Positions 683 to 60,833 of a stretch of 64,000 nucleotides of DNA are shown one piece after another. Under the pieces are notes generated by a model. The model searched no databases, was not told the DNA's origin, and saw only the letters and a list, made by a program, of their open reading frames with translations. The position numbers and the translations under genes are program-made. How positions within the stretch are numbered: position 1 is the stretch's first letter; each line of letters starts with the position of its first letter. Location of the stretch: NCBI GenBank assembly GCA_047634585.1, contig JBLIAN010000014.1:18110-82109 (forward strand). Direction: 5' to 3'. This DNA comes from Sulfitobacter sp. (GTDB lineage: Bacteria; Pseudomonadota; Alphaproteobacteria; Rhodobacterales; Rhodobacteraceae).

Positions 683-709
683 TCCAGACAGACAGATACG
701 GAGCCCGAT

Positions 710-2104: not shown

Positions 2105-2236
2105 GATGTCGTCATGGCCCAAACTTATTTGAGCGCTCAATTAAACCTTGTATCAATACAAGATGCCGTTACACTTTTGACTGGTCCTGTTCTGAAAATG
2201 GGGAACGAGACCCTAAAAACGAACAGGGAGATATGA

Positions 2237-3301: not shown

Positions 3302-3321
3302 CCGCTGCTTTCCATTTCCAG

Positions 3322-3357
3322 ATCCAACGCCCCGTTGTTGTCAGCGCGGCGTTGGAT
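3322..3357 (+). terminator. Stem-loop between convergent genes (ATCCAACGCC ... GGCGTTGGAT)
   Basis: Perfect 10-bp inverted repeat with a 16-nt loop, 20 nt after the stop codon at 3301. Confidence 0.45.
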
Positions 3358-3466
3358 GTTCACAGAGGCCGCCGGGTGAAAGATATCCTGCGCCCCGGAG
3401 CGCTTCGGAAAAGCTGATACGGGTCTGGTCATACAGATCTTGCGGCGCTGGCATTTTGCCCCCTGT

Positions 3467-5799: not shown

Positions 5800-5801
5800 G
5801 T

Positions 5802-7492: not shown

Positions 7493-7493
7493 G

Positions 7494-8702: not shown

Positions 8703-8879
8703 CTGCCGATACCTTCTGTAACCATCCGTGTGTTTCGCCCAGGCTATCAATTTATATCTGAGCGCTCAAACAAAATTTTCAGAAAAGGCCGATATTCGCA
8801 AAAACAGTCACACCACGCGCCTGCCCTGGCTGTCGCCACCCCATGAACCAAGCGGTTTGCCTGTATTTTATACGTGATC

Positions 8880-19159: not shown

Positions 19160-19699
19160 ATGTCTCGGGCGAAAACCTTGCAGGCGTTGTTCAAACGCTA
19201 CCGCCGCCCCGGTGACATTGTCTTTGCTTGGGTGTTCCTGATCTTTTCGCTGCTGCTGTTGTCGCAATTGATGGATCAGACCACCTATCGCGCGGGGGGC
19301 AAGCTGTTCACCCAGCCGATGTTCTGGCCTGCGGTGTCTTTGATCGGGATGTCGGGTTTTGCGGCCTTGCATCTGTTGGGGTCGGCGCTGTCAGACCGTC
19401 TTGAGGGACGCTGGCAAGAGGTTGCGCGCTGGGGGGCGTCGCTTGAATATGCCGCCTGGTTTATTCTCTATGCCTTTGTGGTGCCCTATGCGGGATACCT
19501 GCCTGCAACCGTCTTTCTGGCGCTGGCCCTGACCCTGCGCCTTGGCTATTCCAGCCGCGCTATTGTGATCGGCGCGGTGGTTGCGGCGCTGTCGATTGTG
19601 CTGTTGTTCAAGACATTCCTACAGGTGAAACTGCCCTCGGGGCAAATTTACAATCTGCTGCCCGATGGGCTGCGCCAGTTCATGTTAACCTATTTCTAG
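19160..19699 (+). CDS. TTT small membrane subunit, TctB family
   Basis: About 4 TM helices. Positioned between the tctC-like and tctA-like genes. Confidence 0.7.
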   Translation: MSRAKTLQALFKRYRRPGDIVFAWVFLIFSLLLLSQLMDQTTYRAGGKLFTQPMFWPAVSLIGMSGFAALHLLGSALSDRLEGRWQEVARWGASLEYAAWFILYAFVVPYAGYLPATVFLALALTLRLGYSSRAIVIGAVVAALSIVLLFKTFLQVKLPSGQIYNLLPDGLRQFMLTYF

Positions 19700-19708
19700 G
19701 CGGATCTT

Positions 19709-21229
19709 TTGATGGAAACCTTTTTCGCAGGCGCAGAAATGCTGGCCCGGTGGGACGTGATGATTGCGCTTTTGGTAGGGTCCATCGGCGGGGTGATCAT
19801 TGGCGCCATCCCCGGTGTTGGCCCTGCGGTGGCCATCGCCATTCTACTGCCTGCCACGTTTTCGCTTGATCCGATTGTCGGACTGACCATGCTGTTGGGG
19901 ATCTACGGGTCCTCCATGTATGGCGGGGCGATCCCGGCGGTGTTGATCAACACACCGGGGACAGCGGTGAATGCCCTGACGTCTTATGACGGCTACCCGA
20001 TGACCCAACGTGGCGAAGCGCATCGCGCCGTATCGCTGGCCTATTGCGCCTCGTTCTGGGGTGGCATTTTCGGGATCATCTGCCTGATCCTTCTGTCGCC
20101 GGTTCTGGCGGTTATCGCGCCGATGTTCGGCAGCCGCGAGATTTTTCTCGCGGCGCTTCTGGGGATCATTCTGGTGGTACTGGCCCATCGCGGACAGGTC
20201 TTTGCCGCGGGGATGCTGGCGATGTTCGGGATATTCCTGAATACCGTCGGGCTGGACGCGGTCACCTATACCCAACGCTATACCTTTGGCATGACCTTCC
20301 TGAGCTCCGGCATCAATCTGATCGTGGTGGTGCTGGGCCTGTTCGCGCTTAGCCAGGCGTTTTTCCTGCTGGGCGCACCGGATGAAAGCCCCGATGCACA
20401 GCCTGTGCAGGGGCGTTTCAGTGCGGGTTTCAAGGAATTGTTTCAACACAAACGTGTGGCAACTGTCTCGGCCGGGTTTGGCGTGGTGATGGGGATGATC
20501 CCCGGTGTGGGCGAATTCACCGCCCAATTCATGAGCTATACCTACGCGCAGAAAACCTCAAAGACACCTGCGGCCTTTGGCAAGGGATCCCCCGAAGGCC
20601 TGATCGCCTCTGAGGCTGCCAATAATGCCGTGCCTGCCGCCGCGATGATCCCGCTGCTGGCGCTTGGCATTCCCGGTGAGGCACTGACCGCGATGATGTT
20701 GTCGGTGTTTTATGTGCATAACGTGATCCCCGGCCCGCAGTTGTTCCAGAACAACCTTGATCTGGTGTATGCGCTGTATCTGGCGCTGATCATTCTGAAT
20801 GTGCTGGTGATCCTGTTTTTGATGGTGTCCACCAATATGCTGACGCGGATCATTCGGGTGCCGACACGGTTTCTGGGCATGTTGATCCTGATCCTGTCTT
20901 TTGTCGGGGTCTATTCGCTGCGCAATGCGCTAAGTGATTGCATGATCGCCGCCGGCTTTGGTGTTTTGGGCATGATCCTGAAGCGGCTGAACCTGCCGAT
21001 TGTGCCGATCATCCTTGGTATGGTCCTTGGCGGGATCATGGAGATCAAGCTGCGCTCGTCGCTGCCCCGCCTCAAAACCCCGTTTGATATGATTGATCGC
21101 CCGATTGCGATGGTGATTTTTGGAATGATCCTGCTGGTTCTGGCGATGCATCTACGCACCCTGATCAAGGAATACCGCGCCCATCGCCCCGATGAAGATC
21201 ACGACATCCACGACACACAGACACGGTGA
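19709..21229 (+). CDS. TTT large membrane subunit, TctA family
   Basis: About 500-aa polytopic membrane protein with TctA-like repeats (GxIPGVGP motifs). Start is TTG at 19709 or ATG at 19712. Confidence 0.85.
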   Translation: MMETFFAGAEMLARWDVMIALLVGSIGGVIIGAIPGVGPAVAIAILLPATFSLDPIVGLTMLLGIYGSSMYGGAIPAVLINTPGTAVNALTSYDGYPMTQRGEAHRAVSLAYCASFWGGIFGIICLILLSPVLAVIAPMFGSREIFLAALLGIILVVLAHRGQVFAAGMLAMFGIFLNTVGLDAVTYTQRYTFGMTFLSSGINLIVVVLGLFALSQAFFLLGAPDESPDAQPVQGRFSAGFKELFQHKRVATVSAGFGVVMGMIPGVGEFTAQFMSYTYAQKTSKTPAAFGKGSPEGLIASEAANNAVPAAAMIPLLALGIPGEALTAMMLSVFYVHNVIPGPQLFQNNLDLVYALYLALIILNVLVILFLMVSTNMLTRIIRVPTRFLGMLILILSFVGVYSLRNALSDCMIAAGFGVLGMILKRLNLPIVPIILGMVLGGIMEIKLRSSLPRLKTPFDMIDRPIAMVIFGMILLVLAMHLRTLIKEYRAHRPDEDHDIHDTQTR

Positions 21230-22719
21230 CCCAAATGGACCAGCCAAAAATAGACGCCCTGCGCGCCTTGCCCGTCACAGCCGGGCAACACATCATCAAC
21301 GGCCGGCACCAGCCCGCCTCGGACGGGGCGGTGATGCAGGTAATATCCCCGATTGACGGGCAGCCCCTAACCACGATCGCCAAAGGCACCGCCGCAGATA
21401 TGCACTCTGCCATTGCCGCCGCCCGCGCCGCGTTCGAGGATCGGCGCTGGGCAGGCATGGCCCCGCCAGAGCGCAAGAAAATCCTGTCAAACTGGGCCGA
21501 TCTGATTGAGGCAAACGCGCTGGAACTGGCGGTGTTGGGGGTGCGCGACAATGGCACCGAGATCAACATGGCCCTCAAGGCAGAACCCTATTCCGCCGCC
21601 GGCACCATCCGGTACTACGCCGAAGCCCTGGACAAAGTGTATGGCGAAATCGCCCCGACCGCAGAGGGGGTTCTGGGGCTGATCCACCGCGAACCGCTGG
21701 GCGTGGTCGGCGCGATCATCCCGTGGAATTTCCCGCTGATGATCGGCGCCTGGAAGCTTGGACCGGCCTTGGCGATGGGCAATTCGGTGGTGGTGAAACC
21801 ACCTGAAACCGCCTCGCTGTCCCTGATCCGTCTGGTCGAACTGGCCCATGAGGCAGGTTTGCCCGCGGGGGTGTTGAACCTTGTCACCGGCGAAGGTGCG
21901 GTGGTCGGCGCGGCGATGGGCCTGTCGATGGAGGTAGACGCCATCGTGTTCACCGGATCAGGGCCAACAGGGCGGCGGTTGCTGGAATATGCCGCGCGTT
22001 CGAACCTCAAACGGATTTATCTGGAACTGGGCGGAAAATCCCCCAACATCGTCTTTGTCGATGCCCCAGATTTGGACGAAGCGGCCAAGATCGCGGCGAT
22101 GGGCATTTTCCGCAATTCAGGGCAGGTCTGTGTCGCGGGGGCGCGGCTGTTGGTGCAAGACGCCATTCACGATGATTTTGTCGCCGCGGTCTGTCGCGCG
22201 GCCGAAAAACTACAGGTCGGTGATCCGCTGGACCTGAGCATTGACATCGGCGCGGTCAATTCCGAACGCCAATTGCTGCAAAACCTCGATTTTGTGCAAA
22301 AAGCGCAATCCGAGGGCGGGCAGGTCCAGACCGGCGGCGCACGGGTTTTGCAGGGCACGGGCGGCTTTTACATGGCCCCCACCGTGGTCACAGAAGTGGC
22401 CCAAAACGCCACCCTGTCCCAACAAGAAGTATTCGGCCCGGTGCTGGCCGTCACAAGGTTCAGCGATGAAGCCGGGGCAATTCGCCTTGCCAATGCAACG
22501 GTTTACGGCCTTGCGGGGGCGGTCTGGACCTCAAATCTGTCCCGCGCCCATCGGATGATCCATGCGGTGCGCACCGGGGTGATGCATGTCAACACCTATG
22601 GCGGCGCGGATGGCACGGTGCCGCTGGGCGGGGTCGGGCAATCGGGCAACGGGCATGACAAATCCCTGCATGCCCTGGACAAATACACCAATCTGAAAAC
22701 CGCTTGGATCAAGCTGTAA
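21226..22719 (+). CDS. NAD(P)-dependent aldehyde dehydrogenase
   Basis: ELGGKSP (catalytic Glu) and GQVCVAG (catalytic Cys). GTGA overlap with the tctA stop. Confidence 0.9.
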   Translation: MTQMDQPKIDALRALPVTAGQHIINGRHQPASDGAVMQVISPIDGQPLTTIAKGTAADMHSAIAAARAAFEDRRWAGMAPPERKKILSNWADLIEANALELAVLGVRDNGTEINMALKAEPYSAAGTIRYYAEALDKVYGEIAPTAEGVLGLIHREPLGVVGAIIPWNFPLMIGAWKLGPALAMGNSVVVKPPETASLSLIRLVELAHEAGLPAGVLNLVTGEGAVVGAAMGLSMEVDAIVFTGSGPTGRRLLEYAARSNLKRIYLELGGKSPNIVFVDAPDLDEAAKIAAMGIFRNSGQVCVAGARLLVQDAIHDDFVAAVCRAAEKLQVGDPLDLSIDIGAVNSERQLLQNLDFVQKAQSEGGQVQTGGARVLQGTGGFYMAPTVVTEVAQNATLSQQEVFGPVLAVTRFSDEAGAIRLANATVYGLAGAVWTSNLSRAHRMIHAVRTGVMHVNTYGGADGTVPLGGVGQSGNGHDKSLHALDKYTNLKTAWIKL

Positions 22720-22740: not shown

Positions 22741-23973
22741 ATGTCTGACAAAACCATTCTTGTGATTGGCACCTATGACACCAAAGACGACGAACTGGCG
22801 TTTATGGCAGAGGTGATCCGCGCACAGGGCGGCAGGGTGATCAGCATGGATGTCTCGGTCTTGGGTGATCCGTCGCGCCCGGCGGATCATAGCAAACATG
22901 AGGTGGCAAAGGCGGGCGGCAGCAGCATTGAACTGGCCATTGCGTCGGGGGATGAAAACCACGCGATGCAGATCATGGCCAAAGGTGCGGCGACCCTCTG
23001 TGCACAGCTTTACGCCGCTGGAAAATTTGATGCAATGGTGGTGCTCGGCGGCACAATGGGCACCGATCTGGCGTTGGATGTCTGTGCGGCCCTACCGCTT
23101 GGCGTGCCGAAATATATCGTTTCAACGGTATCGTTTTCGCCGCTGATCCCCGCCGAAAGGCTGGCTGCGGATACCCAGATGATCCTCTGGGCTGGCGGGC
23201 TTTATGGGTTGAATTCGGTGTGCAAGGCGGCGCTTTCCCAGGCCGCAGGGGCGGTGCTGGGTGCGGCACGTGCGGTCACGCCGCCAAAGTCCGACAGGCC
23301 GTTGATCGGCATGACATCTTTGGGCAAATCGGCACTGAAATATATGGTGGCGCTAAAACCGGCCTTGGAAAGCCGGGGCTTTGAAGTGGCGGTGTTTCAT
23401 GCCACGGGCATGGGCGGGCGCGCCTTTGAAAACCTTGCCGCGCAGGGGGCTTTTGCCTGTGTCTTTGATTTTTGCACGCAGGAATTGGGCAATCACCTGC
23501 ATGGGTCAAATATTTCGGCGGGGGCGGACCGTCTGAGCAATGCTGGGCGCAAGGGCATTCCGCAGCTGATTGCACCGGGCTGTTATGATCTGGTCGATAT
23601 TGTTGGCTGGCAAGCGATCCCCGACAAATGGGCGGACCATCCCAAACATGCCCATAACCGCCTGCTGACCTCGATTGTGCTGAACATAAAAGAGCGCAAA
23701 GCCGTGGCCCGCGCCCATTGTGCGCAGCTGGCCAAGGCCACAGGGCCAACGGCGGTGTTGCTGCCGCAATTGGGTTTGGGGGAATGGGACCGCGCCGGCG
23801 CTGACCTGCATGACCCCGCCGGGCTGGCTGCGTTTTTCGCAGAGCTGGAAACCCATTGCCCCGCCACCGCCGAGATCACCAAAATTGATGGCCACATCAA
23901 TGACGATATTTTTGCGCAGACTGCATTGTCGGTCTTTGATGATTGGTGCGCGGCGGGGCTTATTGCGCGTTAG
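22741..23973 (+). CDS. UPF0261 / Tm-1-like ATP-binding family protein (function unknown)
   Basis: The N-terminus KTILVIGTYDTKDDELAFM and the overall length match my memory of the UPF0261 family. Not verified by search. Confidence 0.55.
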   Translation: MSDKTILVIGTYDTKDDELAFMAEVIRAQGGRVISMDVSVLGDPSRPADHSKHEVAKAGGSSIELAIASGDENHAMQIMAKGAATLCAQLYAAGKFDAMVVLGGTMGTDLALDVCAALPLGVPKYIVSTVSFSPLIPAERLAADTQMILWAGGLYGLNSVCKAALSQAAGAVLGAARAVTPPKSDRPLIGMTSLGKSALKYMVALKPALESRGFEVAVFHATGMGGRAFENLAAQGAFACVFDFCTQELGNHLHGSNISAGADRLSNAGRKGIPQLIAPGCYDLVDIVGWQAIPDKWADHPKHAHNRLLTSIVLNIKERKAVARAHCAQLAKATGPTAVLLPQLGLGEWDRAGADLHDPAGLAAFFAELETHCPATAEITKIDGHINDDIFAQTALSVFDDWCAAGLIAR

Positions 23974-24394
23974 GGTCCAAAAGCGCCAGCAGATCCAGCA
24001 ATTCCTCGTATTGCGCCGCGCCCAGCTTTTCCTTGAACCCGCTGACAATGCGGTTGGAATGATCAGCGTTGTCCTGAATGATTTTCTGCCCCGCCTCGGT
24101 GATCGCGATCATCTGGCGGCGGCGGTCTTTTTCATCTCGGGTCTGGGTGATCAGCCCCCTGCCCCGCATGGATTGCGCGATCCGGGTGAGGCTGGGAAAC
24201 AACAGGCTGGCACGGTCCGCCAGGGTCGAGGCATCCTGCGGGCCATATTCCGCCAAGACCCGCAAAACCCGCCATTGCTGTTCGGTGATGCCGGTTTCGG
24301 CCAGCATCTCGCGGATCGGGGCCATCACCCCTTCACGGGCGCGGATCAGCGCAATAGGAAGAGACCGCGAAGTCGAAGGCAGGTTGCGCGTCAT
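23960..24394 (-). CDS. hpaR: MarR-family regulator, HpaR (homoprotocatechuate operon repressor)-like
   Basis: MarR winged helix-turn-helix (QQWRVLRVL...DASTLADRASLLFPSLTRI...TRDEKDRRR). Divergent from the hpa operon. Confidence 0.75.
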   Translation of the reverse strand: MTRNLPSTSRSLPIALIRAREGVMAPIREMLAETGITEQQWRVLRVLAEYGPQDASTLADRASLLFPSLTRIAQSMRGRGLITQTRDEKDRRRQMIAITEAGQKIIQDNADHSNRIVSGFKEKLGAAQYEELLDLLALLDPNAQ

Positions 24395-24423: not shown

Positions 24424-24502
24424 AATCGGCCCCCTGTCTTGCCGATTAACACTTGACATCACAAGGTTGTTTTAATTAACATAGCAATTATTAACATGTT
24501 AA
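24424..24502. promoter_or_regulatory. hpaR / hpa operon control region
   Basis: Inverted repeat AATCGGC-N10-GCCGATT (24424-24447). TTGACA at 24453-24458. Three ATTAACA copies beginning at 24445, 24475 and 24490. Perfect 12-bp palindrome TTAACATGTTAA (24491-24502) abutting the RBS AAGGAA. Confidence 0.45.
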
Positions 24503-24512
24503 GGAATACGCC

Positions 24513-24902
24513 ATGCCGCATTTCCAGATTGATTATTCCGGCAACCTTGAGGATGCCGTTGACATCAGCGCCCTGTGCGAAGCGATCCGCGCCGAAGCGG
24601 CCCGGATTGACACTTTCCCGATGGCGGGCATTCGGGTGCGGGCCCTGCGTGTGGATCATTATGCCATGGCGGACGGCAATCCCAAACACGGGTTTATCGA
24701 CCTGTCGATCCGCCTGCGGGCGGGGCGTGATCCGGCCGTGAAACAGGCCGCCGTCGCACAAATTTTCGCCTGCATGAAAGAATTCCTTGGCCCGGTACTG
24801 GCACATCGCTCTCTCGCGCTGTCTGCGGAAATGCGCGACATTGATGCAGGGCTGTCCCCGAAATACGGCACCACCCGCGACCATCTGGAGGAACCTAAAT
24901 GA
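24513..24902 (+). CDS. hpaF: 5-carboxymethyl-2-hydroxymuconate delta-isomerase
   Basis: The N-terminal MPHF... and FPMAGIRVRA resemble E. coli HpaF (MPHF..., FPLAGIRSRV). The size is similar. Confidence 0.8.
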   Translation: MPHFQIDYSGNLEDAVDISALCEAIRAEAARIDTFPMAGIRVRALRVDHYAMADGNPKHGFIDLSIRLRAGRDPAVKQAAVAQIFACMKEFLGPVLAHRSLALSAEMRDIDAGLSPKYGTTRDHLEEPK

Positions 24903-26410
24903 GCGTGCTTGATCAGAACATCGAAAAACTTCAGGGCTATTTGCGCCGGTTCAAAACCGATGGGGTGCAAAACCGTATTGCCGGACAAGACAGCGCCGGA
25001 TCAGGCGGGACGTTTGAAAATGCTTCCCCTGTTGATAAATCCCGCATTTGTGATGTGGCCCGTGGCGATGCCTCGGATATCGACAGGGCCGCCAAAGCCG
25101 CCGCTGGGGCCTTTGCGGGCTGGCGTGACATGCCTGCCACCGAGCGGCGCAAAATCCTGATCAAAGTGGCGGAAGGCATCGAGGCCCGCGCCGAGGAAAT
25201 CGCCTTTTGCGAATGTTGGGACACCGGCCAGACCATCCGCTTTATGTCCAAAGCTGCCCTGCGCGGGGCCGAAAATTTTCGCTATTTTGCCGATCAGGTT
25301 GTACAGGCCCGCGATGGGCAGCACCTGAAATCCCCCACGCTGATGAACATCACCACCCGCGTGCCGATTGGCCCTGTCGGGGTGATCACCCCGTGGAACA
25401 CGCCGTTTATGTTGTCCACCTGGAAAATCGCCCCTGCCTTGGCGGCGGGCTGTAGCGTGGTGCATAAACCTGCGGAAGCCTCGCCGCTGACGGCGCGTCT
25501 GCTGGTTGAAATCGCCGAAGAGGCGGGCCTGCCCCCCGGTGTGCTGAACACTGTCAACGGCTATGGCGAGGAAGCGGGCAAAGCCCTGTGTGAACACCCC
25601 GCGATCAAGGCCATCGCCTTTGTCGGAGAAAGCCGCACCGGCAGTATGATCACCAAACAAGGCGCAGACACCCTAAAGCGCAACCACCTTGAACTGGGTG
25701 GCAAGAACCCGGTGATCGTCTTTGAAGATGCCGATCTGGACCGGGCCCTGGATGCGGTGATCTTTATGATCTATTCAATCAACGGCGAACGCTGCACCTC
25801 GTCTTCGCGCCTGTTGGTCCAAGACACGATCCGCGCCGAATTCGAGGCCAGGCTGGTGGAACGGGTCAATAGGATCAAAGTCGGTCATCCGCTGGATCCG
25901 AGCAGCGAAATCGGCCCGTTGGTCACCCAGGAACATTTCGACAAGGTGACCCGCTATTTCGATATCGCCAGACAGGACGGCGCCACAATCGCCGCTGGCG
26001 GCGAGACCCTCGGCGACAGCGGATATTTCATCCGCCCGACCCTGTTCACCAATGCCACCAATGACATGCGCATTGCCCGCGAAGAAATATTCGGCCCGGT
26101 GCTGACCTCGATCCCGTTCAGCAGTGAAGACGAGGCGCTGCACCTCGCCAATGACACCCCCTACGGGTTGACCGGATATGTCTGGACCAATGATCTGACG
26201 CGGGCCCTGCGGTTCACGGATCGCCTTGAGGCGGGGATGATCTGGGTGAATTCTGAAAACGTGCGCCATCTGCCAACGCCGTTTGGCGGGGTCAAATCCA
26301 GCGGCATCGGGCGCGACGGCGGCGATTGGTCTTTTGACTTCTATATGGAACAAAAGCACATCGGCTTTGCCACCGGACAGCATAAAATCACGCGCCTTGG
26401 TGCGCAGTAA
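24899..26410 (+). CDS. hpaE: 5-carboxymethyl-2-hydroxymuconate semialdehyde dehydrogenase
   Basis: Aldehyde dehydrogenase motifs ELGGKNP and NGERCTSSSR. Operon context. Confidence 0.8.
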   Translation: MSVLDQNIEKLQGYLRRFKTDGVQNRIAGQDSAGSGGTFENASPVDKSRICDVARGDASDIDRAAKAAAGAFAGWRDMPATERRKILIKVAEGIEARAEEIAFCECWDTGQTIRFMSKAALRGAENFRYFADQVVQARDGQHLKSPTLMNITTRVPIGPVGVITPWNTPFMLSTWKIAPALAAGCSVVHKPAEASPLTARLLVEIAEEAGLPPGVLNTVNGYGEEAGKALCEHPAIKAIAFVGESRTGSMITKQGADTLKRNHLELGGKNPVIVFEDADLDRALDAVIFMIYSINGERCTSSSRLLVQDTIRAEFEARLVERVNRIKVGHPLDPSSEIGPLVTQEHFDKVTRYFDIARQDGATIAAGGETLGDSGYFIRPTLFTNATNDMRIAREEIFGPVLTSIPFSSEDEALHLANDTPYGLTGYVWTNDLTRALRFTDRLEAGMIWVNSENVRHLPTPFGGVKSSGIGRDGGDWSFDFYMEQKHIGFATGQHKITRLGAQ

Positions 26411-26422
26411 GGAGAGCCGAAA

Positions 26423-27406
26423 ATGCCCGTACCCGCACCAAACCTATACCCTGATTTCAACACCATCCGCCTGTCCCATATCTGTCTGAATGTGAAAGAT
26501 CTGGCCGCCTCCAAGGTGTTTTATACCGACATCCTTGGCCTGCAGGTGACAGATGAGACCGACAGCCATGTCTATCTGCGCGCCATGGAAGAACGCGGTC
26601 ATCACTGTATCATTCTGCAACGCTCTGATCAGCCCGCCACGGTTGAGGTCATGGGCTTTAAAACCTTTGACGAGGATGATCTGGACAAGGCCGAAACCTA
26701 TTTCCAATCCAAAGGCCGCCCGACCACCTGGGTCGAACGCCCCTATCAGGGCCGCACATTGCTGACCTCGGATAACATGGGTATCCCGCTGGAGTTTTAT
26801 CACAAGATGGACCGCCTTGATCCGATCCATCAGAAATATGCGCTGTATCGCGGGGTGAAACCCCTGCGCATTGACCACTTCAATTGTTTCAGTTCTGATG
26901 TGGATGCCTCGGTGGCCTTTTACAGCGATTTCGGCTTTCGGGTGACGGAATATACCGAGGACGAAGACAGCAAGAAACTTTGGGCGGCATGGATGCACCG
27001 CAAGGGCGGCGTGCATGACATGGCCTTTACCAATGGCACGGGGCCACGGATGCACCATGTGGCGTTTTGGGTGCCGACGCCGCTGAATATCATTGATCTG
27101 CTCGATCTGATGGCGACCACCGGATATGTCGGCAATATTGAACGCGGTCCGGGGCGGCACGGGATTTCGAATGCGTTTTTCCTGTATATCCTTGACCCTG
27201 ACGGGCATCGCATCGAAATTTACTGTTCGGATTATCAAACTGTTGATCCCGATCTGGAACCGATCAAATGGGATCTGACCGATCCCCAGCGCCAGACGCT
27301 TTGGGGCGCAGCCGCACCGCGCAGCTGGTTTGAACATGGCACAGGCTTTACAGGGGTTGAACAACGCGACAGCGCCATGGCGGCCAGCCCGATCATCGCA
27401 CCATAG
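26423..27406 (+). CDS. hpaD: 3,4-dihydroxyphenylacetate (homoprotocatechuate) 2,3-dioxygenase, VOC (type I extradiol) class
   Basis: Two glyoxalase/VOC modules (RLSHICLNVKDL...; RIDHFNCFSSDV...HHVAFW). Operon context. Confidence 0.75.
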   Translation: MPVPAPNLYPDFNTIRLSHICLNVKDLAASKVFYTDILGLQVTDETDSHVYLRAMEERGHHCIILQRSDQPATVEVMGFKTFDEDDLDKAETYFQSKGRPTTWVERPYQGRTLLTSDNMGIPLEFYHKMDRLDPIHQKYALYRGVKPLRIDHFNCFSSDVDASVAFYSDFGFRVTEYTEDEDSKKLWAAWMHRKGGVHDMAFTNGTGPRMHHVAFWVPTPLNIIDLLDLMATTGYVGNIERGPGRHGISNAFFLYILDPDGHRIEIYCSDYQTVDPDLEPIKWDLTDPQRQTLWGAAAPRSWFEHGTGFTGVEQRDSAMAASPIIAP

Positions 27407-27414
27407 GAGAGACC

Positions 27415-28812
27415 ATGCATTGGGACGAATTCGCCCATTGGGGCAAGCATATCACCGATTGGGCAAGTGAGTACCACAAAACATTGGGCGACCGCCCGGT
27501 GCGCGCCCAGACCAATCCCGGTGACATCAGCGTACAATTGCCCGCCGCCCCACCCGAGGGCGGCGAGGCGATGGATCACATCATGGCAGATTTTGAACGG
27601 GTGGTGATGCCGGGGATCACCCATTGGCAGCACCCGCGTTTCTTTGCCTATTTCCCCGCCAATGCCGCGCCCCCCTCGATGCTGGCGGAAATGCTGGTCA
27701 CCACCATCGCCGCCCAATGCATGTTGTGGCAGACCTCGCCTGCCGCCACCGAAATGGAAGGCGTCATGGTGGATTGGCTGCGTCAGGCCTTGGGCCTGCC
27801 CGCCCCCTATACCGGCGTGATCCAGGATAGCGCCTCGTCGGCCACCCTGTCGGCGGTGCTGACAATGCGCGAACGCGCCACTGGTTTCACCGGCAACAAC
27901 GACGGCCTTTGCAACAAGGGTCATTTGCGGATTTATTGTTCGGATCAGGTGCATTCCTCGATTGACCGCGCCTGTTGGGTTGCGGGCATCGGTCAGGCCA
28001 ATCTGGTCAAAATACCCACCAATGGCCCACGCCACGCGATTGATTGCGTTGCGCTGAAACAGGCCATCACCGAGGACCGCGCCGCAGGGCATATTCCTGC
28101 GGGGATCATCGCCATCACCGGCGGCACCGGTGTCGGGGCCTGCGATACATTGGGTCCGGTTCTGAAAATCGCGCAGGAGGAAAACCTCTATACCCATCTG
28201 GATGCCGCATGGGCGGGGGCGGCGATGATCTGTCCCGAATTCCGCAAAGATTTCTGGGCCGATGTGGCGGGGTTTGACAGTATCGTGTTCAACCCGCACA
28301 AATGGCTGGGCGCACAATTTGATTGTTCGGTGCAGTTTCTGGCCGATCCCACGGCGCAGCTGAACACCCTGAAAATCGAACCTGAATACCTTAAAACTTC
28401 GGGTGCTGACGTGGTCAATTATTCGGAATGGACAATTCCGCTGGGCCGCCGTTTCCGGGCACTGAAAATCTGGTTTCTGATCCGGTCTTACGGGCTGGAG
28501 GGGCTGCGCAGCCGGATCCGCAACCATGTGACATGGGCGGGCGAGGTCTGCCAGGCGTTGCGCGCCCTGGACGGGTTTGAAATTGTCACCGAACCGATCC
28601 TCAGCCTGTTTTCCTTTCGCTGCCCCGGTGATGACGCGATGCAGCAACGGCTGGTTGATGCATTGAACGATGACGGGCGGATCTATCTGACCCAAGGCGC
28701 CTTTGACGGGCGCAAGATCATCCGCTTTCAGGTCGGTCAATTCGACACCACCCGCGCGGATGTGATGATGGCCGTGGATGTCATTCAAGAAATCTGGAAG
28801 AAAATATCATGA
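27415..28812 (+). CDS. Group II PLP-dependent decarboxylase, aromatic-L-amino-acid (DOPA/tyrosine) decarboxylase-like
   Basis: HWQHPRFFAYFPA near the N-terminus. PLP-lysine motif FNPHKWL. Length is typical of DDC/TyDC enzymes. Confidence 0.85.
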   Translation: MHWDEFAHWGKHITDWASEYHKTLGDRPVRAQTNPGDISVQLPAAPPEGGEAMDHIMADFERVVMPGITHWQHPRFFAYFPANAAPPSMLAEMLVTTIAAQCMLWQTSPAATEMEGVMVDWLRQALGLPAPYTGVIQDSASSATLSAVLTMRERATGFTGNNDGLCNKGHLRIYCSDQVHSSIDRACWVAGIGQANLVKIPTNGPRHAIDCVALKQAITEDRAAGHIPAGIIAITGGTGVGACDTLGPVLKIAQEENLYTHLDAAWAGAAMICPEFRKDFWADVAGFDSIVFNPHKWLGAQFDCSVQFLADPTAQLNTLKIEPEYLKTSGADVVNYSEWTIPLGRRFRALKIWFLIRSYGLEGLRSRIRNHVTWAGEVCQALRALDGFEIVTEPILSLFSFRCPGDDAMQQRLVDALNDDGRIYLTQGAFDGRKIIRFQVGQFDTTRADVMMAVDVIQEIWKKIS

Positions 28813-29663
28813 ACTTTGCCACCTACACCGCCGCCGGACAGCAATTCTATGGGGCCGTCACCGATCACGGCATGATCGCGCTCAGCCCGCAGTGCCCCCA
28901 CTGGCCCAGCCTGCTGGACGTTATTCAAGCCGGCGCCCTTGACCAACTGACCGCCCTTGCCGCAGGAAAACCCGTGACCCACACGGATTTCGAATATGAT
29001 ATGGTGCTGCCCAATGCGCAGCGCATCCTGTGTGTCGGGGTCAATTTCCCTGACCGGAATGCCGAATACAAAGACGGCTCTGCCCAGCCTGACTTCATGT
29101 CGCTGTTTCCACGTTTTGCCAGCGGATTTACCGGCCACGGGCGCAATCTGGTGCGCCCGCCGGAAAATCATACGCTGGATTATGAGGGTGAAGTCGCGAT
29201 CGTGATTGGCAAGGCCGGCCGCCGCATCGCCCAGGCAGATGCCTATGATCACATCGCCGCCCTGACCCTGTGCAACGAAGGCACGATCCGCGATTGGGTG
29301 CGCCATGCGAAATTCAATGTGACCCAAGGCAAGAACTGGGACAATTCCGGCGCGATGGGGCCCTGGCTGGTGCCTTTCACCGATGCTGCGCAACTGGATG
29401 AGGCGCGCATCATCACCCGGGTGAATGGCGAGATACGCCAAGACGATGTATTGTCACGGATGATGTTCCCGATCCGCCGCGAAATCGAATATATTTCGAC
29501 GTTTATGACCCTGAAACCGGGCGATATCATTGTCACCGGCACCCCCACAGGCGCGGGCGCACGGTTTGATCCACCGCGCTATTTGACACCCGGTGATGTG
29601 GTGGAAATCGAAGTTGGCGGCATCGGCACCCTGCGCAACGGGATCGCGGACGAACAGATATGA
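28809..29663 (+). CDS. hpaG: Fumarylacetoacetate hydrolase-family enzyme, HpaG-like (OPET decarboxylase / HHDD isomerase)
   Basis: FAH-fold motifs (LDYEGEVAIVIG, GDIIVTGTPTGAG). Operon context. It is a single FAH domain rather than the fused two-domain E. coli HpaG. Confidence 0.75.
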   Translation: MNFATYTAAGQQFYGAVTDHGMIALSPQCPHWPSLLDVIQAGALDQLTALAAGKPVTHTDFEYDMVLPNAQRILCVGVNFPDRNAEYKDGSAQPDFMSLFPRFASGFTGHGRNLVRPPENHTLDYEGEVAIVIGKAGRRIAQADAYDHIAALTLCNEGTIRDWVRHAKFNVTQGKNWDNSGAMGPWLVPFTDAAQLDEARIITRVNGEIRQDDVLSRMMFPIRREIEYISTFMTLKPGDIIVTGTPTGAGARFDPPRYLTPGDVVEIEVGGIGTLRNGIADEQI

Positions 29664-30460
29664 CCCCGCAAGAGCACGCCAAAGCCGCCGCTGATCTGTT
29701 GAAGGCCGAGGGTACCGGCCAGCAGATCGGCCTGTTGACCCAGCGCCATCCCGAGATCGGCATGGATGACGCCTATGAAATCCAGAACGCAATCTACCGC
29801 GCCAAACTGGCGGCGGGGCGCAGGGTGATCGGCTGGAAGATCGGGCTGACCTCGAAAGCGATGCAATATGCCTTGAACATCGACATTCCCGACAGCGGAA
29901 TCCTGTTTGATGACATGTTGTTTGCAGACAATGCCGTGGTGCCGGCGGGGCGGTTTATCCAGCCGCGCATTGAAGCCGAGATTGCCTTTGTACTGAAAGC
30001 GCCCTTGGGCGGGGCCAATGTGACCCGCGAGGACGTTCTGGCAGCAACAGAGTATGTTGCCCCCTCAATTGAAATTCTCGACACGCGCATTCAGCGGGTT
30101 GATCCGGCAACAGGACAAAGCCGCACGGTGTTTGACACAATCAGCGACAATGCTGCCAATGCGGGGATTGTGCTGGGGGCGCAAAAACATGCGGTAGACG
30201 ATTTTGATCTGCGCTGGGTCGGGGCAATGGCGTTTCGTAACGGTGAGATCGAAGAGACCGGCCTTGGCGCGGGTGTGTTGAATGATCCGGTGCAAAGCGT
30301 GGTCTGGCTGGCGCGGCGCATGGCGCAGTATGGCCAAAGCATTCAAGCGGGGCAGATTGTCCTGTCAGGCAGTTTCATCCGCCCGGTTGAATGCCCGTCA
30401 GGCACCAAAATCCATACGGATTTCGGTGCCTTTGGCGATGTGCATATATCATTTGATTAA
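29660..30460 (+). CDS. hpaH: 2-oxo-hept-4-ene-1,7-dioate hydratase
   Basis: MhpD/HpaH-family hydratase sequence (GWKIGLTSKAMQ, EAEIAF). About 266 aa, like E. coli HpaH. Confidence 0.8.
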   Translation: MTPQEHAKAAADLLKAEGTGQQIGLLTQRHPEIGMDDAYEIQNAIYRAKLAAGRRVIGWKIGLTSKAMQYALNIDIPDSGILFDDMLFADNAVVPAGRFIQPRIEAEIAFVLKAPLGGANVTREDVLAATEYVAPSIEILDTRIQRVDPATGQSRTVFDTISDNAANAGIVLGAQKHAVDDFDLRWVGAMAFRNGEIEETGLGAGVLNDPVQSVVWLARRMAQYGQSIQAGQIVLSGSFIRPVECPSGTKIHTDFGAFGDVHISFD

Positions 30461-30467
30461 CACAATC

Positions 30468-30496
30468 CCCTTGGCGGGGATCATGACCGCCAAGGG
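30468..30496 (+). terminator. Hairpin after the hpa operon (CCCTTGGCGG-N9-CCGCCAAGGG)
   Basis: Perfect 10-bp stem 8 nt after the hpaH stop. Only a weak T-run follows. Confidence 0.5.
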
Positions 30497-30498
30497 AA

Positions 30499-30528
30499 GG
30501 TTTCGCCTGCCACGGTTTCGCCTGCCAC
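30499..30528. repeat. Perfect tandem duplication of the 15-mer GGTTTCGCCTGCCAC (2 copies)
   Basis: Read directly in the sequence, in the 75-bp gap between the convergent hpaH and phyK. Confidence 0.9.
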
Positions 30529-30535
30529 AGCAAGA

Positions 30536-32260
30536 TCAGAAATCCGCCGGTTCATGTTCAAAGGTCGCCGCCTCGAAGGTGACAATCATCCGGTAGTTTT
30601 CTGCGTCCTGTTCGATCTCGATCTCGGCACCCAGCTGGATTGCAAAGGCATTGATCAATTTCGCCCCCATACCGGTGCTTTCGGCACTGTTGTCTTCGCC
30701 CACGGAATTGGCAAATTCAAACACACAGCTGTCATCGTCATGGCGTTTAAAGGACACCGATACCCATGATTGCACACCTGCGGTTTCACCTACATATTTC
30801 ATCGCGTTTGTGGCGGCCTCTGAAGCCAGCAGCGACATCGGCACCGCCTGATCAGGATAGAGCATCACATCATCAATATCCGCACTGACCCGCAATATTT
30901 CAGGATCAGGTGAGGCAATTTCAACCGACCTGTCGATGATTTCACGCACCAGTTCACCCACATTGACCAAGCCGCCTGTGCTGGTTTGATAGAGATCACG
31001 GTGGATAGTGGCCAGGCTCAGCACCCGGTCCTGCATCCGGCGCAACACCCGTTTGGTGTCCTCATGTTCGGCCTCGCGGATTTGCATGTTCAGGATCGAG
31101 GAAATCAGCTGAAGATTATTCTTCACCCGGTGATGCACCTCTTTTAACAGCACCTTTTGCTGGCGCACTGAATCTTCCAGTTCCGCCTCGTCGCGCAGGA
31201 TCGAATGTGCCATCGCCAGAAACGAAGCCTGGATGTTTTGCAATTCACTGGGCATTTCGGCGGTGCGTTCATTGGTCAACAGGGTGCGGTTGTCGGCAAA
31301 GCGGGTCATCTGCGCGCCAACGCTCAGGATGTGACGCGACACCAGCCGGTGAATGGCAAACAATGCCACCGCAAGGCTGATCACCCACATCAATCCCGGA
31401 AACAGGCTGGTGGGCAGGATTTTGCGAATTTCATCCGAGACGCCGTTTTCGCGATCCCAAACCCCCAGTGCATAGATATGGCCGTTTTCAATCGGCACCA
31501 CCGCATAGATCCGTTCCTTGCCATAGACGCTTTGGCGCGAAAATGTCTGGGCCTCCATGCCTGAAAACCCCGCAAGGTTGACCCCCAAAGGCAAATGCGT
31601 GACCGCCGTTTCAATGCCGTTGCGTGAACTCAGAATTTCGCCCTCGTTGTTGAAAATCAACAGATCGACAAGCGCCTCCTGGTCGCTGTCATCGCCCAAA
31701 GCATCCAGCGCGGTATGGGGAATCGAAATGGTGACAAAGCCCGACAAGATGTCGTCGTCAAACACCGGCTGGGAGATATTGATCACCGATCCTTCATTCA
31801 CCCTTGCGCCGGAATTGACCTCGATGCGCGGCGCTTCGGCGGCGACAGTGTCAGCGAAATCGGCATTGTCGGAAAAATCAAATTCCTGCAGCGCCGAGGA
31901 ACACACCATTTTCCCCGAAACCGGCAGATAGCCGATAAAGGTGAAGGGGCTGGCATTTTCCACGACCTGTTCAAGCCGCGTTGAACAGGTGGCCGGATCA
32001 TCCGGCAACTTGGGCAAAAACGCCCCGATCCCTGCGGCAAGGCCAAAGGCACGCTGGATGATCAGCCGTTCTTCGGCGGCGGCCTGTTCGGTCAGCCCCA
32101 GCAACGCCAGTTCGGCATTCTGGCTGGCCTGTTCGGTCACGCTTCGGGTCTGGCTGACCGCGATCAGGCCAATCGGCAGCATCGCCAATGACATCATCGC
32201 AACCAGCCGAAACCTAAGACTCTTGTACCATGCTTGCGGTTGGGGGTCTTCGATCTTCAC
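30536..32260 (-). CDS. phyK: HWE/HisKA_2-type sensor histidine kinase with a periplasmic sensor domain (PhyK-like general stress response kinase)
   Basis: Two TM helices flank a roughly 260-aa periplasmic region. H-box EVHHRVKNNLQLISSIL. Last gene of the nepR-ecfG operon. Confidence 0.7.
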   Translation of the reverse strand: MKIEDPQPQAWYKSLRFRLVAMMSLAMLPIGLIAVSQTRSVTEQASQNAELALLGLTEQAAAEERLIIQRAFGLAAGIGAFLPKLPDDPATCSTRLEQVVENASPFTFIGYLPVSGKMVCSSALQEFDFSDNADFADTVAAEAPRIEVNSGARVNEGSVINISQPVFDDDILSGFVTISIPHTALDALGDDSDQEALVDLLIFNNEGEILSSRNGIETAVTHLPLGVNLAGFSGMEAQTFSRQSVYGKERIYAVVPIENGHIYALGVWDRENGVSDEIRKILPTSLFPGLMWVISLAVALFAIHRLVSRHILSVGAQMTRFADNRTLLTNERTAEMPSELQNIQASFLAMAHSILRDEAELEDSVRQQKVLLKEVHHRVKNNLQLISSILNMQIREAEHEDTKRVLRRMQDRVLSLATIHRDLYQTSTGGLVNVGELVREIIDRSVEIASPDPEILRVSADIDDVMLYPDQAVPMSLLASEAATNAMKYVGETAGVQSWVSVSFKRHDDDSCVFEFANSVGEDNSAESTGMGAKLINAFAIQLGAEIEIEQDAENYRMIVTFEAATFEHEPADF

Positions 32261-32814
32261 TGCGGAATTGTACCCGCACCGGAAATCACGGCCATCGTGG
32301 CATTGTCAGTCAGTTCCATCGGGCTCTCGTCATCAAGCTGCAACAATTCGGTCAGTTTCGCGCGCCCGCGATTGGCGCGGCTTTTCACGGTGCCCACCGC
32401 AACCCCGCACATGTCAGCGGCTTCCTCATAGGAAAACCCCGATGCGCCCACAAGGATCAACGCCTCGCGCTGTTCATCGGGCAGGGTTTCAAACGCCTTT
32501 TTGAAATCACTTAGCTGCATCCGCCCGTCATGGTCCGGCTTCACCGACAAGGAGGCCGTAAACACGCCATCCACATCCGCAACCTCACGGTTCAGCTTGC
32601 GACGGCTGGAATAATAAGTGTTGCGCAGAATGGTGAACAACCAGGCCCGCATTTTTGTTCCGGCCTGGAACTTGTCGATGTTTGTCCATGCTTTGACCAC
32701 GGTATCTTGCACCATGTCATCGGCCGTGGCCCCATTGCGAGTCAGACTCAGCGCAAAGGCCCTCAGGGCCGGAAGATGTTCAACCAGCTCACTCCTTGGA
32801 TCTTCGGTACTCAT
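32257..32814 (-). CDS. ecfG: ECF sigma factor, EcfG (sigma-EcfG/SigT) type
   Basis: Sigma-70 regions 2 and 4 (DDMVQDTVVKAW, GFSYEEAADMCGVAVGTVKSR). Overlaps nepR and phyK by 4 nt on each side. Confidence 0.85.
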   Translation of the reverse strand: MSTEDPRSELVEHLPALRAFALSLTRNGATADDMVQDTVVKAWTNIDKFQAGTKMRAWLFTILRNTYYSSRRKLNREVADVDGVFTASLSVKPDHDGRMQLSDFKKAFETLPDEQREALILVGASGFSYEEAADMCGVAVGTVKSRANRGRAKLTELLQLDDESPMELTDNATMAVISGAGTIPQ

Positions 32815-32975
32815 TTTTTGTCCTTCAACTCGACATCTTGTGCCGCAAGAACATCAAGTAAGTCTTTGAAACGATCCGGCAATTTCTCTTCTGCCAGGTC
32901 CGAGTAGACCATCTTGAGGTTCTGATCGATCAGATCTGAAATGCGATCGTTGTCTTTTGCCTTATTGTTCTTCAT
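32811..32975 (-). CDS. nepR: NepR anti-sigma factor (54 aa)
   Basis: Small ORF immediately upstream of and overlapping ecfG. C-terminal LPDRFKDLLDVL helix typical of NepR. The start at 32975 is the only ATG downstream of the predicted promoter. Confidence 0.65.
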   Translation of the reverse strand: MKNNKAKDNDRISDLIDQNLKMVYSDLAEEKLPDRFKDLLDVLAAQDVELKDKK

Positions 32976-33018
32976 CTTATTTACGGTCTCTTTTTTTTCG
33001 AAAAAGTCATCACCCAAC

Positions 33019-33051
33019 GGAACCGAACGCATCATCACCGCGTTTGGTTCC
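33019..33051. promoter_or_regulatory. Two overlapping, divergent EcfG-type promoters (GGAAC-N17-CGTT on each strand)
   Basis: Plus strand: GGAAC 33019-33023 and CGTT 33041-33044, ahead of phyR. Minus strand: GGAAC 33051-33047 and CGTT 33029-33026, ahead of nepR. Confidence 0.7.
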
Positions 33052-33079
33052 GTAACAAATAGAAAAAAGGCAAAATAAA

Positions 33080-33892
33080 ATGTCGAATTCGCAAGGAACA
33101 TCTGATCTCTCTGGTCAGATCGCACAACAGCTTCCTTATCTGCGCCGCTATGCGCGGGCCTTGACCGGTTCGCAAACCAGCGGTGACAATTACGCGGTCG
33201 CCACGCTTGAGGCGATCCTTCAGGACAGATCCATCTTTGAGGAAGGCCTGTCGATCAGGGTCGGCCTGTTCAAATGTTTTCACGCCATCTGGATCAGCAC
33301 AGGGGCACCCGTGGTCGACGCCGCCACCGGGACACTGGGAAAAGCGCAGGCCCATCTGGCGACGCTGGGGGCCAATACCCGCGAGGCGCTGTTGCTTTCC
33401 ACAATTGAGGAATTCTCGATCTCGGATATTGCCTTGATCATGAACATCGACGCCGAGGAAGCGCGCCTGTTGATTTCGACCGCCCGCGCGGACATGGAAA
33501 ACAGCACCTCTGGCCGGATTTTGATCATCGAGGACGAACCGATCATCGCCGCCGATCTCAGCGCGATTGTCAGCGACCTGGGGCACAAGGTAACGGGCGT
33601 GGGGCGCACCCGCACAGATGCGGTGAAAAAGGGCACCGCAGACAAGCCCGATCTGATCCTTGCCGACATCCAACTGGCCGATAATTCTTCGGGCATTGAT
33701 GCAGTCAATGACCTGTTGAAAGAACTGGGCGATACGCCGGTGATCTTTATCACCGCCTTCCCGGAACGGCTGTTGACGGGGGACCGCCCCGAACCTGCGT
33801 TCCTGATTGCCAAACCCTATAAAGAAGAACAGGTGCAATCGGCGGTCAGTCAGGCGATGTTCTTTGCCTCGACCGAGACCCTGCTGGGCTGA
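33080..33892 (+). CDS. phyR: PhyR anti-anti-sigma response regulator (sigma-like N-domain plus receiver)
   Basis: N-terminal ECF-sigma-like domain (LPYLRRYARALTGS). C-terminal receiver (RILIIEDEPIIA...DLILADIQL...IAKPY). Confidence 0.9.
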   Translation: MSNSQGTSDLSGQIAQQLPYLRRYARALTGSQTSGDNYAVATLEAILQDRSIFEEGLSIRVGLFKCFHAIWISTGAPVVDAATGTLGKAQAHLATLGANTREALLLSTIEEFSISDIALIMNIDAEEARLLISTARADMENSTSGRILIIEDEPIIAADLSAIVSDLGHKVTGVGRTRTDAVKKGTADKPDLILADIQLADNSSGIDAVNDLLKELGDTPVIFITAFPERLLTGDRPEPAFLIAKPYKEEQVQSAVSQAMFFASTETLLG

Positions 33893-60787: not shown

Positions 60788-60833
60788 CAGGAGATCTTTC
60801 TTGAAGGAACTTCAGTCGGGCACCGAAGTGCGG

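Follow-up and report, generated by a model that had tools for sequence, protein, structure and literature searches.

Organization of the operon

The 64 kb stretch of Sulfitobacter sp. DNA analysed here (the window) carries on its forward strand, at 24513-30460, six open reading frames (ORFs) in the order hpaF-hpaE-hpaD-decarboxylase-hpaG-hpaH (Table 1), that is, genes for the meta-cleavage of homoprotocatechuate (3,4-dihydroxyphenylacetate, HPC) with the gene of a pyridoxal phosphate (PLP)-dependent decarboxylase placed between hpaD and hpaG. Gene identities were taken from Pfam and NCBIfam/TIGRFAM profile searches, with equivalog cut-offs expressed in bits. A first-pass annotation made from the letters alone had proposed this order with the same coordinates, and both were borne out by the ORFs and their profile matches. 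The overlapping or nearly abutting codons that it had listed proved to be ATGA start/stop overlaps, which connect hpaF to hpaE (24899/24902), the decarboxylase gene to hpaG (28809/28812) and hpaG to hpaH (29660/29663). The remaining two gaps measure 12 and 8 nt, and a GGAG-type ribosome-binding site is found in each. The G+C content of the decarboxylase gene (0.591) equals that of its neighbours (0.55-0.60 in the hpa genes).

In its ring-cleavage genes the operon follows an ordinary hpa meta-cleavage pathway, its dioxygenase being of type I. HpaD matched the structures 1F1X and 1Q0C of the Protein Data Bank (PDB) with an E value of 6e-78, and residues H155, H214, E267, H200, Y257, N157, W192, R243 and H248 were all kept in the alignment, thus both the metal ligands and the second-sphere residues of the Brevibacterium HPC dioxygenase (HPCD) are retained. 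The best match of the hpaG-like protein was the HpaG-C-term model (150 bits, under the equivalog cut-off of 276); in relatives, the place of its gene after hpaD or the decarboxylase gene is kept. On one contig that is otherwise identical to the window (L039, 5012-6619), the gene caller gives a 535-aa FAH-family product in place of separate hpaG and hpaH, which suggests that a frameshift or an assembly error has fused them.

The hpaR gene is divergent from the operon, and the 118-nt region between hpaR and hpaF holds a near-consensus promoter together with operator-like repeats (ATTAACAT, present twice) that overlap it and a perfect palindrome, TTAACATGTTAA, at 24491-24502 in the operator-like region. 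A TTGACA box and TTAACA/TGTTAA half-sites precede hpaF in the Roseibium, Sulfitobacter and Sagittula loci as well, and hpaR was found in 18 of the 36 decarboxylase-carrying loci compared. HpaR would thus be expected to bind the palindromic operator and to control the operon. At the opposite end, direct reading of the stretch between the convergent hpaH and phyK genes showed a hairpin with a 10-bp G+C-rich stem, which is the likely end of the operon; lacking a T tract, it was not listed by the consensus scan. Because of the overlapping codons, the single promoter with its operator and the hairpin with the convergent phyK downstream, the six genes appear to form a single transcription unit under HpaR control. 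The public runs in which the window sequence occurs are metagenomes of ice and seawater DNA, with flat, DNA-like coverage and no RNA signal. Next to the hairpin, between hpaH and phyK, two tandem copies of a 15-nt unit (GGTTTCGCCTGCCAC) occupy 30499-30528; four public runs of closely related populations have a single copy.

Table 1. Genes and sites of the hpa operon, its upstream block and the distant aldolase gene (positions in the window; scores and cut-offs in bits)
Feature	Position	Strand	Basis
Class III (omega) aminotransferase	15874-17220	-	PF00202, 301 bits; NCBIfam NF005683, 727 bits, above cut-off
IclR-family regulator	17217-18026	-	PF09339 + PF01614; weak PcaR/PobR-type match
TctC	18146-19090	+	PF03401
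TctB	19160-19699	+	PF07331
TctA	19709-21229	+	PF01970
Aldehyde dehydrogenase, PuuC/KauB/AldA type	21226-22719	+	PF00171, 521 bits
UPF0261 protein, last gene of the tctCBA-aldehyde dehydrogenase unit	22741-23973	+	PF06792 + PF23189
hpaR, MarR-family repressor, divergent from the operon	23960-24394	-	TIGR02337 HpaR, 131 bits (cut-off 121)
Operon promoter region	24453-24509	+	TTGACA 24453-24458, 18-nt spacer, TAACAT 24477-24482; near-consensus
hpaF, 5-carboxymethyl-2-hydroxymuconate isomerase (CHMI)	24513-24902	+	PF02962, 130 bits
hpaE, 5-carboxymethyl-2-hydroxymuconate semialdehyde dehydrogenase	24899-26410	+	TIGR02299, 755 bits (cut-off 638)
hpaD, type I extradiol homoprotocatechuate 2,3-dioxygenase (Brevibacterium/Arthrobacter type)	26423-27406	+	TIGR02295, 405 bits (cut-off 321)
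Aromatic L-amino-acid decarboxylase-clade enzyme, 465 aa, proposed L-DOPA decarboxylase	27415-28812	+	PF00282, 308 bits, residues 35-402
hpaG-like single-domain FAH-family protein, 284 aa, proposed OPET decarboxylase	28809-29663	+	PF01557, 205 bits
hpaH, 2-oxo-hept-4-ene-1,7-dioate hydratase	29660-30460	+	TIGR02312, 383 bits (cut-off 351)
Hairpin, 10-bp G+C-rich stem CCCTTGGCGG / CCGCCAAGGG	30468-30496	.	Read directly, between convergent hpaH and phyK
HpcH/HpaI-family class II aldolase, about 30 kb from the operon	60834-61607	-	PF03328, 131 bits

A distinct subfamily of aromatic amino acid decarboxylases

The product of the fourth gene had been described as a DDC/TyDC-type decarboxylase, and this held, as besides the PF00282 match its nearest structures all belong to the aromatic clade. 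The structures of DOPA, tyrosine, tryptophan and histidine decarboxylases (DDC, TyDC, TDC and HDC) were matched with E values of 1e-77 to 3e-107, while those of GAD, CSAD and DABA decarboxylases gave 1e-22 to 5e-33. The closest solved structure was PDB 7XIN, titled 'DOPA decarboxylase' (E 3e-107, 40% identity), which we take to be the L-DOPA-specific enzyme of Pseudomonas putida; our literature search found no paper on it. This structure shares with the window enzyme the clade, the fold class, the approximate length and the catalytic residues. Arabidopsis 6EEI, pig DDC (1JS3, 38% identity) and human AADC were also near, with aldehyde-synthase and histidine-decarboxylase cousins included. A GABA-shunt reading, in which the decarboxylase would act with the class III transaminase and a succinate-semialdehyde dehydrogenase (SSADH), was rejected, since the enzyme is far nearer to the aromatic than to the glutamate decarboxylases and keeps the aromatic cage described below.

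In the alignment, K296, H180, D263, Y325 and G344 correspond to K303, H192, D271, Y332 and G354 of the pig enzyme, the Schiff-base lysine lying in the motif NPHKW, the cofactor-stacking histidine in SDQVHSS and the aspartate that binds the pyridine nitrogen in LDAAWAG. The catalytic loop reads EPEYLK, whereas that of the synthase 6EEI reads NPEFLK with Phe at the Tyr332 position. Since the catalytic residues are intact and the Tyr332 equivalent is present, the product is predicted to be an amine rather than an aldehyde. An aromatic acetaldehyde synthase, which would convert L-DOPA directly to 3,4-dihydroxyphenylacetaldehyde, would shorten the pathway and leave the transaminase unneeded, and plant and insect enzymes of the clade do perform such reactions (6EEI, 6EEQ and 6JRL were among the matches). 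However, both switches are in the decarboxylase state in the window enzyme, Y325 standing where plant 6EEI has Phe, and H180 where insect aromatic acetaldehyde synthases have asparagine (the pig His192 position), and a transaminase gene is conserved next to the operon, so we regard a synthase as extremely improbable.

The residues W71, Y79 and F80 show no variation among the 153 members of the family; they line the aromatic pocket of pig DDC, and this cage is shared, along with the catalytic residues, by pig DDC (1JS3), the Catharanthus tryptophan decarboxylase (6EEW) and the Papaver tyrosine decarboxylase (6EEM). The rest of the pocket differs. Position 82 is Ala in the window family, Thr in pig DDC, Ser in 7XIN and in the poppy tyrosine decarboxylase, and Ala in the Catharanthus enzyme. 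Residues 101-103, contributed by the partner subunit, are Ile-Gly-Phe in pig DDC, Leu-Gly-Leu in 7XIN and Val-Gly-Phe in both the Catharanthus and the poppy enzymes, while this (I/V/L)-G-(F/L) pattern is replaced by Gln-Cys-Met (Q-C-M) throughout the bacterial family, so that the set A, Q, C, M stands here against S, L, G, L in 7XIN. The Q-C-M motif was retained in 151-153 of the 153 sequences, as far as 56% identity. Judged from these residues, the enzyme should be a genuine decarboxylase of aromatic L-amino acids and represents a subfamily of its own; which amino acid it uses is not told by the sequence.

The upstream transaminase-transporter-dehydrogenase block

Dopamine is no substrate of the hpa enzymes and must first become 3,4-dihydroxyphenylacetate, thus enzymes leading from the amine to the acid are needed. 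The first-pass annotation had the decarboxylase feed 3,4-dihydroxyphenylacetate into the operon; the link to ring cleavage stood, but the candidates for the amine-to-acid steps, a transaminase and an aldehyde dehydrogenase encoded just upstream of the operon, had been overlooked. The nearest structures of the aminotransferase are the omega-amine transaminases 5LH9 (E 6e-129) and 6S54 (E 3e-126). Its gene has a 4-nt overlap with that of the IclR-family regulator, which is divergent from tctC. The best NCBIfam match of the aldehyde dehydrogenase was PuuC (534 bits, below the cut-off), and its nearest structures are KauB 6B4R, 5IUU, which we take to be the indole-3-acetaldehyde dehydrogenase AldA, and the PuuC-like 4LIH, so that its closest kin are enzymes that work on aldehydes derived from amines; gene callers place its start at 21235. 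TctCBA, a tripartite tricarboxylate-type transporter that is co-located in relatives too, is proposed to import a carboxylate that serves the pathway as a substrate; the TctC binding protein has only distant kin among solved structures, which give no clue to its ligand. The UPF0261 gene keeps the same position in relatives, with no partner gene evident, and its structure matches (9MPY and Tm-1) give no ligand clue either.

The block of transaminase, IclR, Tct and aldehyde dehydrogenase genes adjoins the hpa operon in relatives with varying order and orientation, namely in Sulfitobacter mediterraneus (locus L042), in Roseibium/Labrenzia (L002 and L004-L008), in an uncultured Sulfitobacter (L020) and in a 'Rhizobiales' metagenome-assembled genome (MAG; L013), the transaminase gene itself lying next to the operon in Roseibium, Sulfitobacter and the 'Rhizobiales' MAG. 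It occurs both with and without the decarboxylase gene (without it in, e.g., L051, L053, L062, L073 and L121). These associations suggest that the block may be an amine-to-arylacetate module, which the decarboxylase would extend back to the amino acid.

Distribution, variants and deletion scars

Roseobacter-group genomes and marine metagenomes commonly contain orthologues of the decarboxylase (80-86% identical, about 465 aa). The gene directly follows hpaD in 18 of the 36 species-level loci that carry it, and the hpaFED-decarboxylase-hpaGH order is kept in Sulfitobacter, Roseobacter sp. GAI101, Sagittula, Marivivens, Roseibium/Labrenzia and the 'Rhizobiales' MAG; this recurrence puts the arrangement far beyond chance. 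A recent horizontal insertion was ruled out because the G+C content of the gene matches that of its neighbours and the arrangement spans several families. Operon anatomy and synteny together support the decarboxylase gene as a genuine, presumably co-transcribed member of the HPC meta-cleavage operon. Other gene families around the decarboxylase cluster were not conserved, and the neighbourhoods of distant family members (56-62% identity) show no common theme. On one metagenome contig (L110, 2659-2925) the decarboxylase gene starts after hpaH and not after hpaD, which shows that it can occupy more than one place in the operon.

In a reverse survey, 80 metagenome loci were picked by HpaD (77-92% identical). 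The decarboxylase gene followed hpaD, directly or after another gene, in 22 loci; in 35 the operon ran on into hpaG without it; 17 had a truncated hpaR-hpaE-hpaD set beside pca genes or another arrangement; and in six the contig ended. Conservation of the inserted gene, which the first-pass annotation had put forward for comparison, is therefore divided: among carriers the order is kept as described above, but only 22 of the 57 related metagenome operons carry the gene and 35 lack it, some with scars. An operon dedicated to the decarboxylase route, as had been suggested, is contradicted by this variability.

The fullest operons (L052, L075 and L013) consist of hpaR followed by hpaF-hpaE-hpaD-ssadh-decarboxylase-hpaG-hpaH-hpaI. 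The extra aldehyde dehydrogenase gene ahead of the decarboxylase gene (L001, L012, L013, L052 and L075) was considered as an arylacetaldehyde dehydrogenase, but its product is an SSADH (TIGR01780, 704 bits, cut-off 646) and thus the last enzyme of the HPC pathway rather than a partner of the decarboxylase. The last gene of these operons scored 347 bits with HpaI, just below the cut-off of 369, and hpaI follows hpaH in L013, L044, L052 and L075. By this comparison, the operon in the window is best described as a reduced form that has lost ssadh and hpaI.

Remnants of deletions were found at several loci. In L062 a fusion joins the first 81 codons of ssadh to the final 32 of the decarboxylase gene, in L065 the decarboxylase gene has an internal deletion, and in L050, L054 and L059 fragments of ssadh precede an intact decarboxylase gene. 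In L041 (a Sulfitobacter MAG, 9374-11410), hpaR and its promoter are followed by a 5′ remnant of hpaF and then by the decarboxylase gene, and a full phenylacetate cluster (paaABCDE, paaZ and a thiolase gene) lies on the other side of hpaR. Because of these scars, some operons without the decarboxylase gene must descend from operons that had one. Taken with the survey, they indicate that the decarboxylase is a variable and not a defining member of the operon, apparently old in the operon family and lost repeatedly, and the pattern of presence, absence and scars makes a clean case of modular gain and loss within a catabolic operon.

The same variability bears on the question of whether the enzyme serves carbon catabolism at all. 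A broad-range aromatic decarboxylase whose main role was the detoxification of L-DOPA or the formation of a biogenic amine might share only its regulation with the hpa genes. The decarboxylase gene that stays under the hpaR promoter in L041 after the hpa deletion, the stand-alone copies in other alphaproteobacteria and the frequent differences in presence and absence between close relatives would all agree with such a role. On the other hand, the gene is translationally coupled to hpaG, its position is stable across two alphaproteobacterial families, and the adjoining transaminase and aldehyde dehydrogenase module would pass the amine into the pathway, which leaves a non-catabolic role quite unlikely.

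A further variant of the operon family carries only hpaR-hpaE-hpaD, with no hpaF, hpaG or hpaH nearby, and was seen on a dozen or more marine metagenome contigs (L084, L087, L089-L091, L093, L094, L097, L099, L100, L103 and L104). L089, the sole such locus annotated downstream, has this stub convergent with pcaHG, the genes of protocatechuate 3,4-dioxygenase, and with pcaC, a gene of the BKACE family and a Lyase_1 gene that may be pcaB. The stub may be a truncated or re-purposed hpa remnant.

Proposed route and entry substrate

The catabolic link of the decarboxylase to HPC is well supported by operon anatomy and synteny. On this basis, the following route is proposed. The decarboxylase would convert L-DOPA to dopamine; the omega-transaminase, presumably of the amine:pyruvate type, would turn dopamine (or another arylethylamine) into 3,4-dihydroxyphenylacetaldehyde; and the PuuC/AldA-type aldehyde dehydrogenase would oxidize the latter to 3,4-dihydroxyphenylacetate, which HpaD, HpaE, HpaF, HpaG and HpaH would then take through the meta-cleavage route, the aldolase and succinate-semialdehyde dehydrogenase steps being supplied from elsewhere in the genome. 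The decarboxylase would thus be an optional upstream extension of a catabolic unit for amines and catechols. The parts assigned to the transaminase, the aldehyde dehydrogenase and the transporter are those suggested by their families and their place beside the operon. Taken as a whole, the reading of an HpaR-repressed decarboxylase that feeds L-DOPA via dopamine into HPC meta-cleavage has, in our estimate, about an even chance of being right.

The choice of L-DOPA comes from gene context and parsimony, and it is ranked first because it is the sole aromatic amino acid that could reach HPC with the enzymes seen here. None of hpaB, hpaC and hpaI lies within the operon. A HpaB-type hydroxylase was not found anywhere in the window, either by tblastn or by a profile scan of ORFs of at least 200 aa, a limit below which an HpaC-like reductase of about 170 aa could escape. 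The E. coli HpaB query, validated against 6QYH, had no tblastn match in the window or in 122 related loci (1.55 Mb). The absence of linked hpaBC noted in the first-pass annotation was thereby extended, for HpaB, to these loci, and since no E. coli-type HpaB occurs in them, a catechol amino acid needs the fewest unseen genes.

The missing hpaI was likewise confirmed, as the hairpin and the convergent phyK gene stand in its place after hpaH. The aldolase encoded at 60834-61607 is a possible stand-in for this last step. Its best NCBIfam match, HpaI at 280 bits, falls short of the cut-off of 369 and is closely followed by GarL-type models, and the protein is only 39-45% identical to the hpaI products that follow hpaH in relatives. 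The aldolase gene is part of a minus-strand run (59951-63996) that also encodes a DAO-family FAD-dependent oxidoreductase, a dehydrogenase of the NAD-dependent epimerase family and a protein similar to hydantoinase/caprolactamase B, and the aldolase probably belongs to another pathway.

If L-tyrosine (or m-tyrosine or phenylalanine) were decarboxylated instead, tyramine would become 4-hydroxyphenylacetate by the same enzymes, and an unlinked hydroxylase would have to produce HPC. As far as the hydroxylation step the gene context fits this route equally well, and the family is as near to plant tyrosine decarboxylases as to DOPA decarboxylases. In E. coli the HpaR-controlled genes are induced by 4-hydroxyphenylacetate and 3-hydroxyphenylacetate as well as by HPC, and in L041 the decarboxylase gene with hpaR adjoins paa genes; this adjacency may be accidental, however, because a deletion left the hpaF remnant there. 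The lack of an HpaB match in the window and the related loci, together with the lack of any further gene conserved near the cluster, tells against tyrosine, as does the glycine that the window enzyme has where plant tyrosine decarboxylases have their marker serine. We therefore consider tyrosine an unlikely substrate.

Tryptophan has been assumed in the literature on roseobacters, where the decarboxylase would start the tryptamine route to indole-3-acetic acid (IAA). With regard to auxin synthesis, it was stated that Roseobacter genomes 'contain a putative tryptophan decarboxylase' (PMC4896954), and JNX03_18460 of S. mediterraneus SC1-11 was named as a putative tryptophan decarboxylase in IAA synthesis, 'most' of the listed IAA-synthesis genes of this strain having risen with H2O2 (PMC12114110). 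The SC1-11 chromosome (CP069004, 3.798 Mb; L042) has the decarboxylase gene in its hpa operon near 3.757 Mb, a position that fits the locus tag, so JNX03_18460 is presumably this hpa-operon gene. Two residues, A82 and G344, agree with A103 and G370 of the Catharanthus tryptophan decarboxylase, and 5IUU is among the near structures of the adjoining aldehyde dehydrogenase. The two residues are non-discriminating, though, because serine occupies the first of these positions in the tryptophan decarboxylase of rice, and the glycine is shared by DOPA decarboxylases; the published assignments were made by homology alone, and an HpaR-controlled catechol-cleavage operon has no user for an indole. Tryptophan thus appears very unlikely.

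Several observations weigh against the L-DOPA route itself. The combination A82/Q101/C102/M103 matches no characterised DOPA, tyrosine or tryptophan decarboxylase, and identity to any characterised enzyme reaches about 40% at most. Specificity for a substrate is unreadable from such a sequence; the mismatch in the pocket lowers the likelihood of a known DDC type, and DOPA would still be possible. The search for HpaB covered the E. coli type in linked loci, with flanks of up to 10 kb, and tyrosine would be as good a candidate as L-DOPA if the genome encoded a hydroxylase of another type or one away from the operon. Finally, the decarboxylase gene survives where hpa genes were lost (L040, L041, L015 and L018) and stands alone, with uninformative neighbours, in Maricaulis and Hyphomonadaceae, thus its use is not strictly tied to ring cleavage.

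With these points considered, we tentatively propose, at somewhat less than even confidence, that marine Roseobacteraceae and Stappiaceae possess a widespread and so far undescribed unit for mineralising L-DOPA and dopamine, composed of the Q-C-M decarboxylase subfamily, the omega-transaminase, the aldehyde dehydrogenase and the HPC meta-cleavage genes, in which the decarboxylase would be gained and lost by niche and the 'tryptophan decarboxylase' would in fact be catabolic. Such compounds have sources in the sea, since certain green macroalgae contain dopamine and the adhesives of invertebrates contain DOPA, and we know of no route described for the mineralisation of catecholic amino acids or amines by the abundant Roseobacter group. 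If confirmed, the proposal would add a new substrate class to the carbon and nitrogen cycling of roseobacters, define the specificity of an uncharacterised decarboxylase subfamily, and correct the annotation behind the claim of a tryptamine route to auxin (PMC12114110, PMC4896954). The arrangement is of interest as it is widespread in an ecologically important group and at odds with published annotation.

Comparison with known systems

The ring-cleavage genes follow the logic of the hpa (hpc) operon of E. coli W/C, where cleavage of the HpaD type is followed by HpaE, HpaF, HpaG and HpaH under a divergent MarR-type HpaR, and the products are pyruvate and succinic semialdehyde. The window differs in that its dioxygenase is of the type I Brevibacterium/Arthrobacter kind, HpaG has a single FAH domain while that of E. 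coli has two, linked hpaBC, hpaA and hpaX are lacking, hpaI is absent from the operon, and a PLP decarboxylase gene (in fuller relatives also ssadh) stands between hpaD and hpaG.

The '3,4-dihydroxyphenylacetate catabolon' of Pseudomonas putida U and the TynA-FeaB route of E. coli degrade tyramine and dopamine via HPC by the same logic as proposed here, from arylethylamine through arylacetaldehyde to arylacetate and then HPC meta-cleavage. Those routes start at the amine, by means of an amine oxidase or dehydrogenase, whereas an omega-transaminase is predicted for the window and the in-operon decarboxylase would move the entry point back to the amino acid. A bacterial decarboxylase specific for L-DOPA is known, and to our knowledge the Pseudomonas DOPA decarboxylase gene is not located inside an hpa operon. 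That a genetic link between such a decarboxylase and HpaD is not well described, as the first-pass annotation held, agrees with our literature search, which found no paper on a decarboxylase linked to hpa genes or on an L-DOPA route in roseobacters.

Other loci in the window

Directly downstream of the operon (30536-33892) lies a complete alphaproteobacterial general-stress-response locus. It encodes PhyR, a HWE/HisKA_2 kinase resembling PhyK, an ECF sigma factor of the EcfG type and the 74-aa NepR, whose name comes from gene calls on the identical contig L036. At the beginning of the window (17-8750), genes for two Rieske-type oxygenase alpha subunits flank those of an ABC importer, and this region, which also holds a second class III aminotransferase gene (710-2104) and a GcvT-like fragment, looks like a catabolic cluster for a methylated amine or betaine. 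Further downstream, at 50473-56468, the gene of a 1142-aa fusion of a polysaccharide deacetylase and a family 2 glycosyltransferase is followed by that of a 905-aa DUF3131 protein, and the pair is probably an exopolysaccharide synthesis unit.

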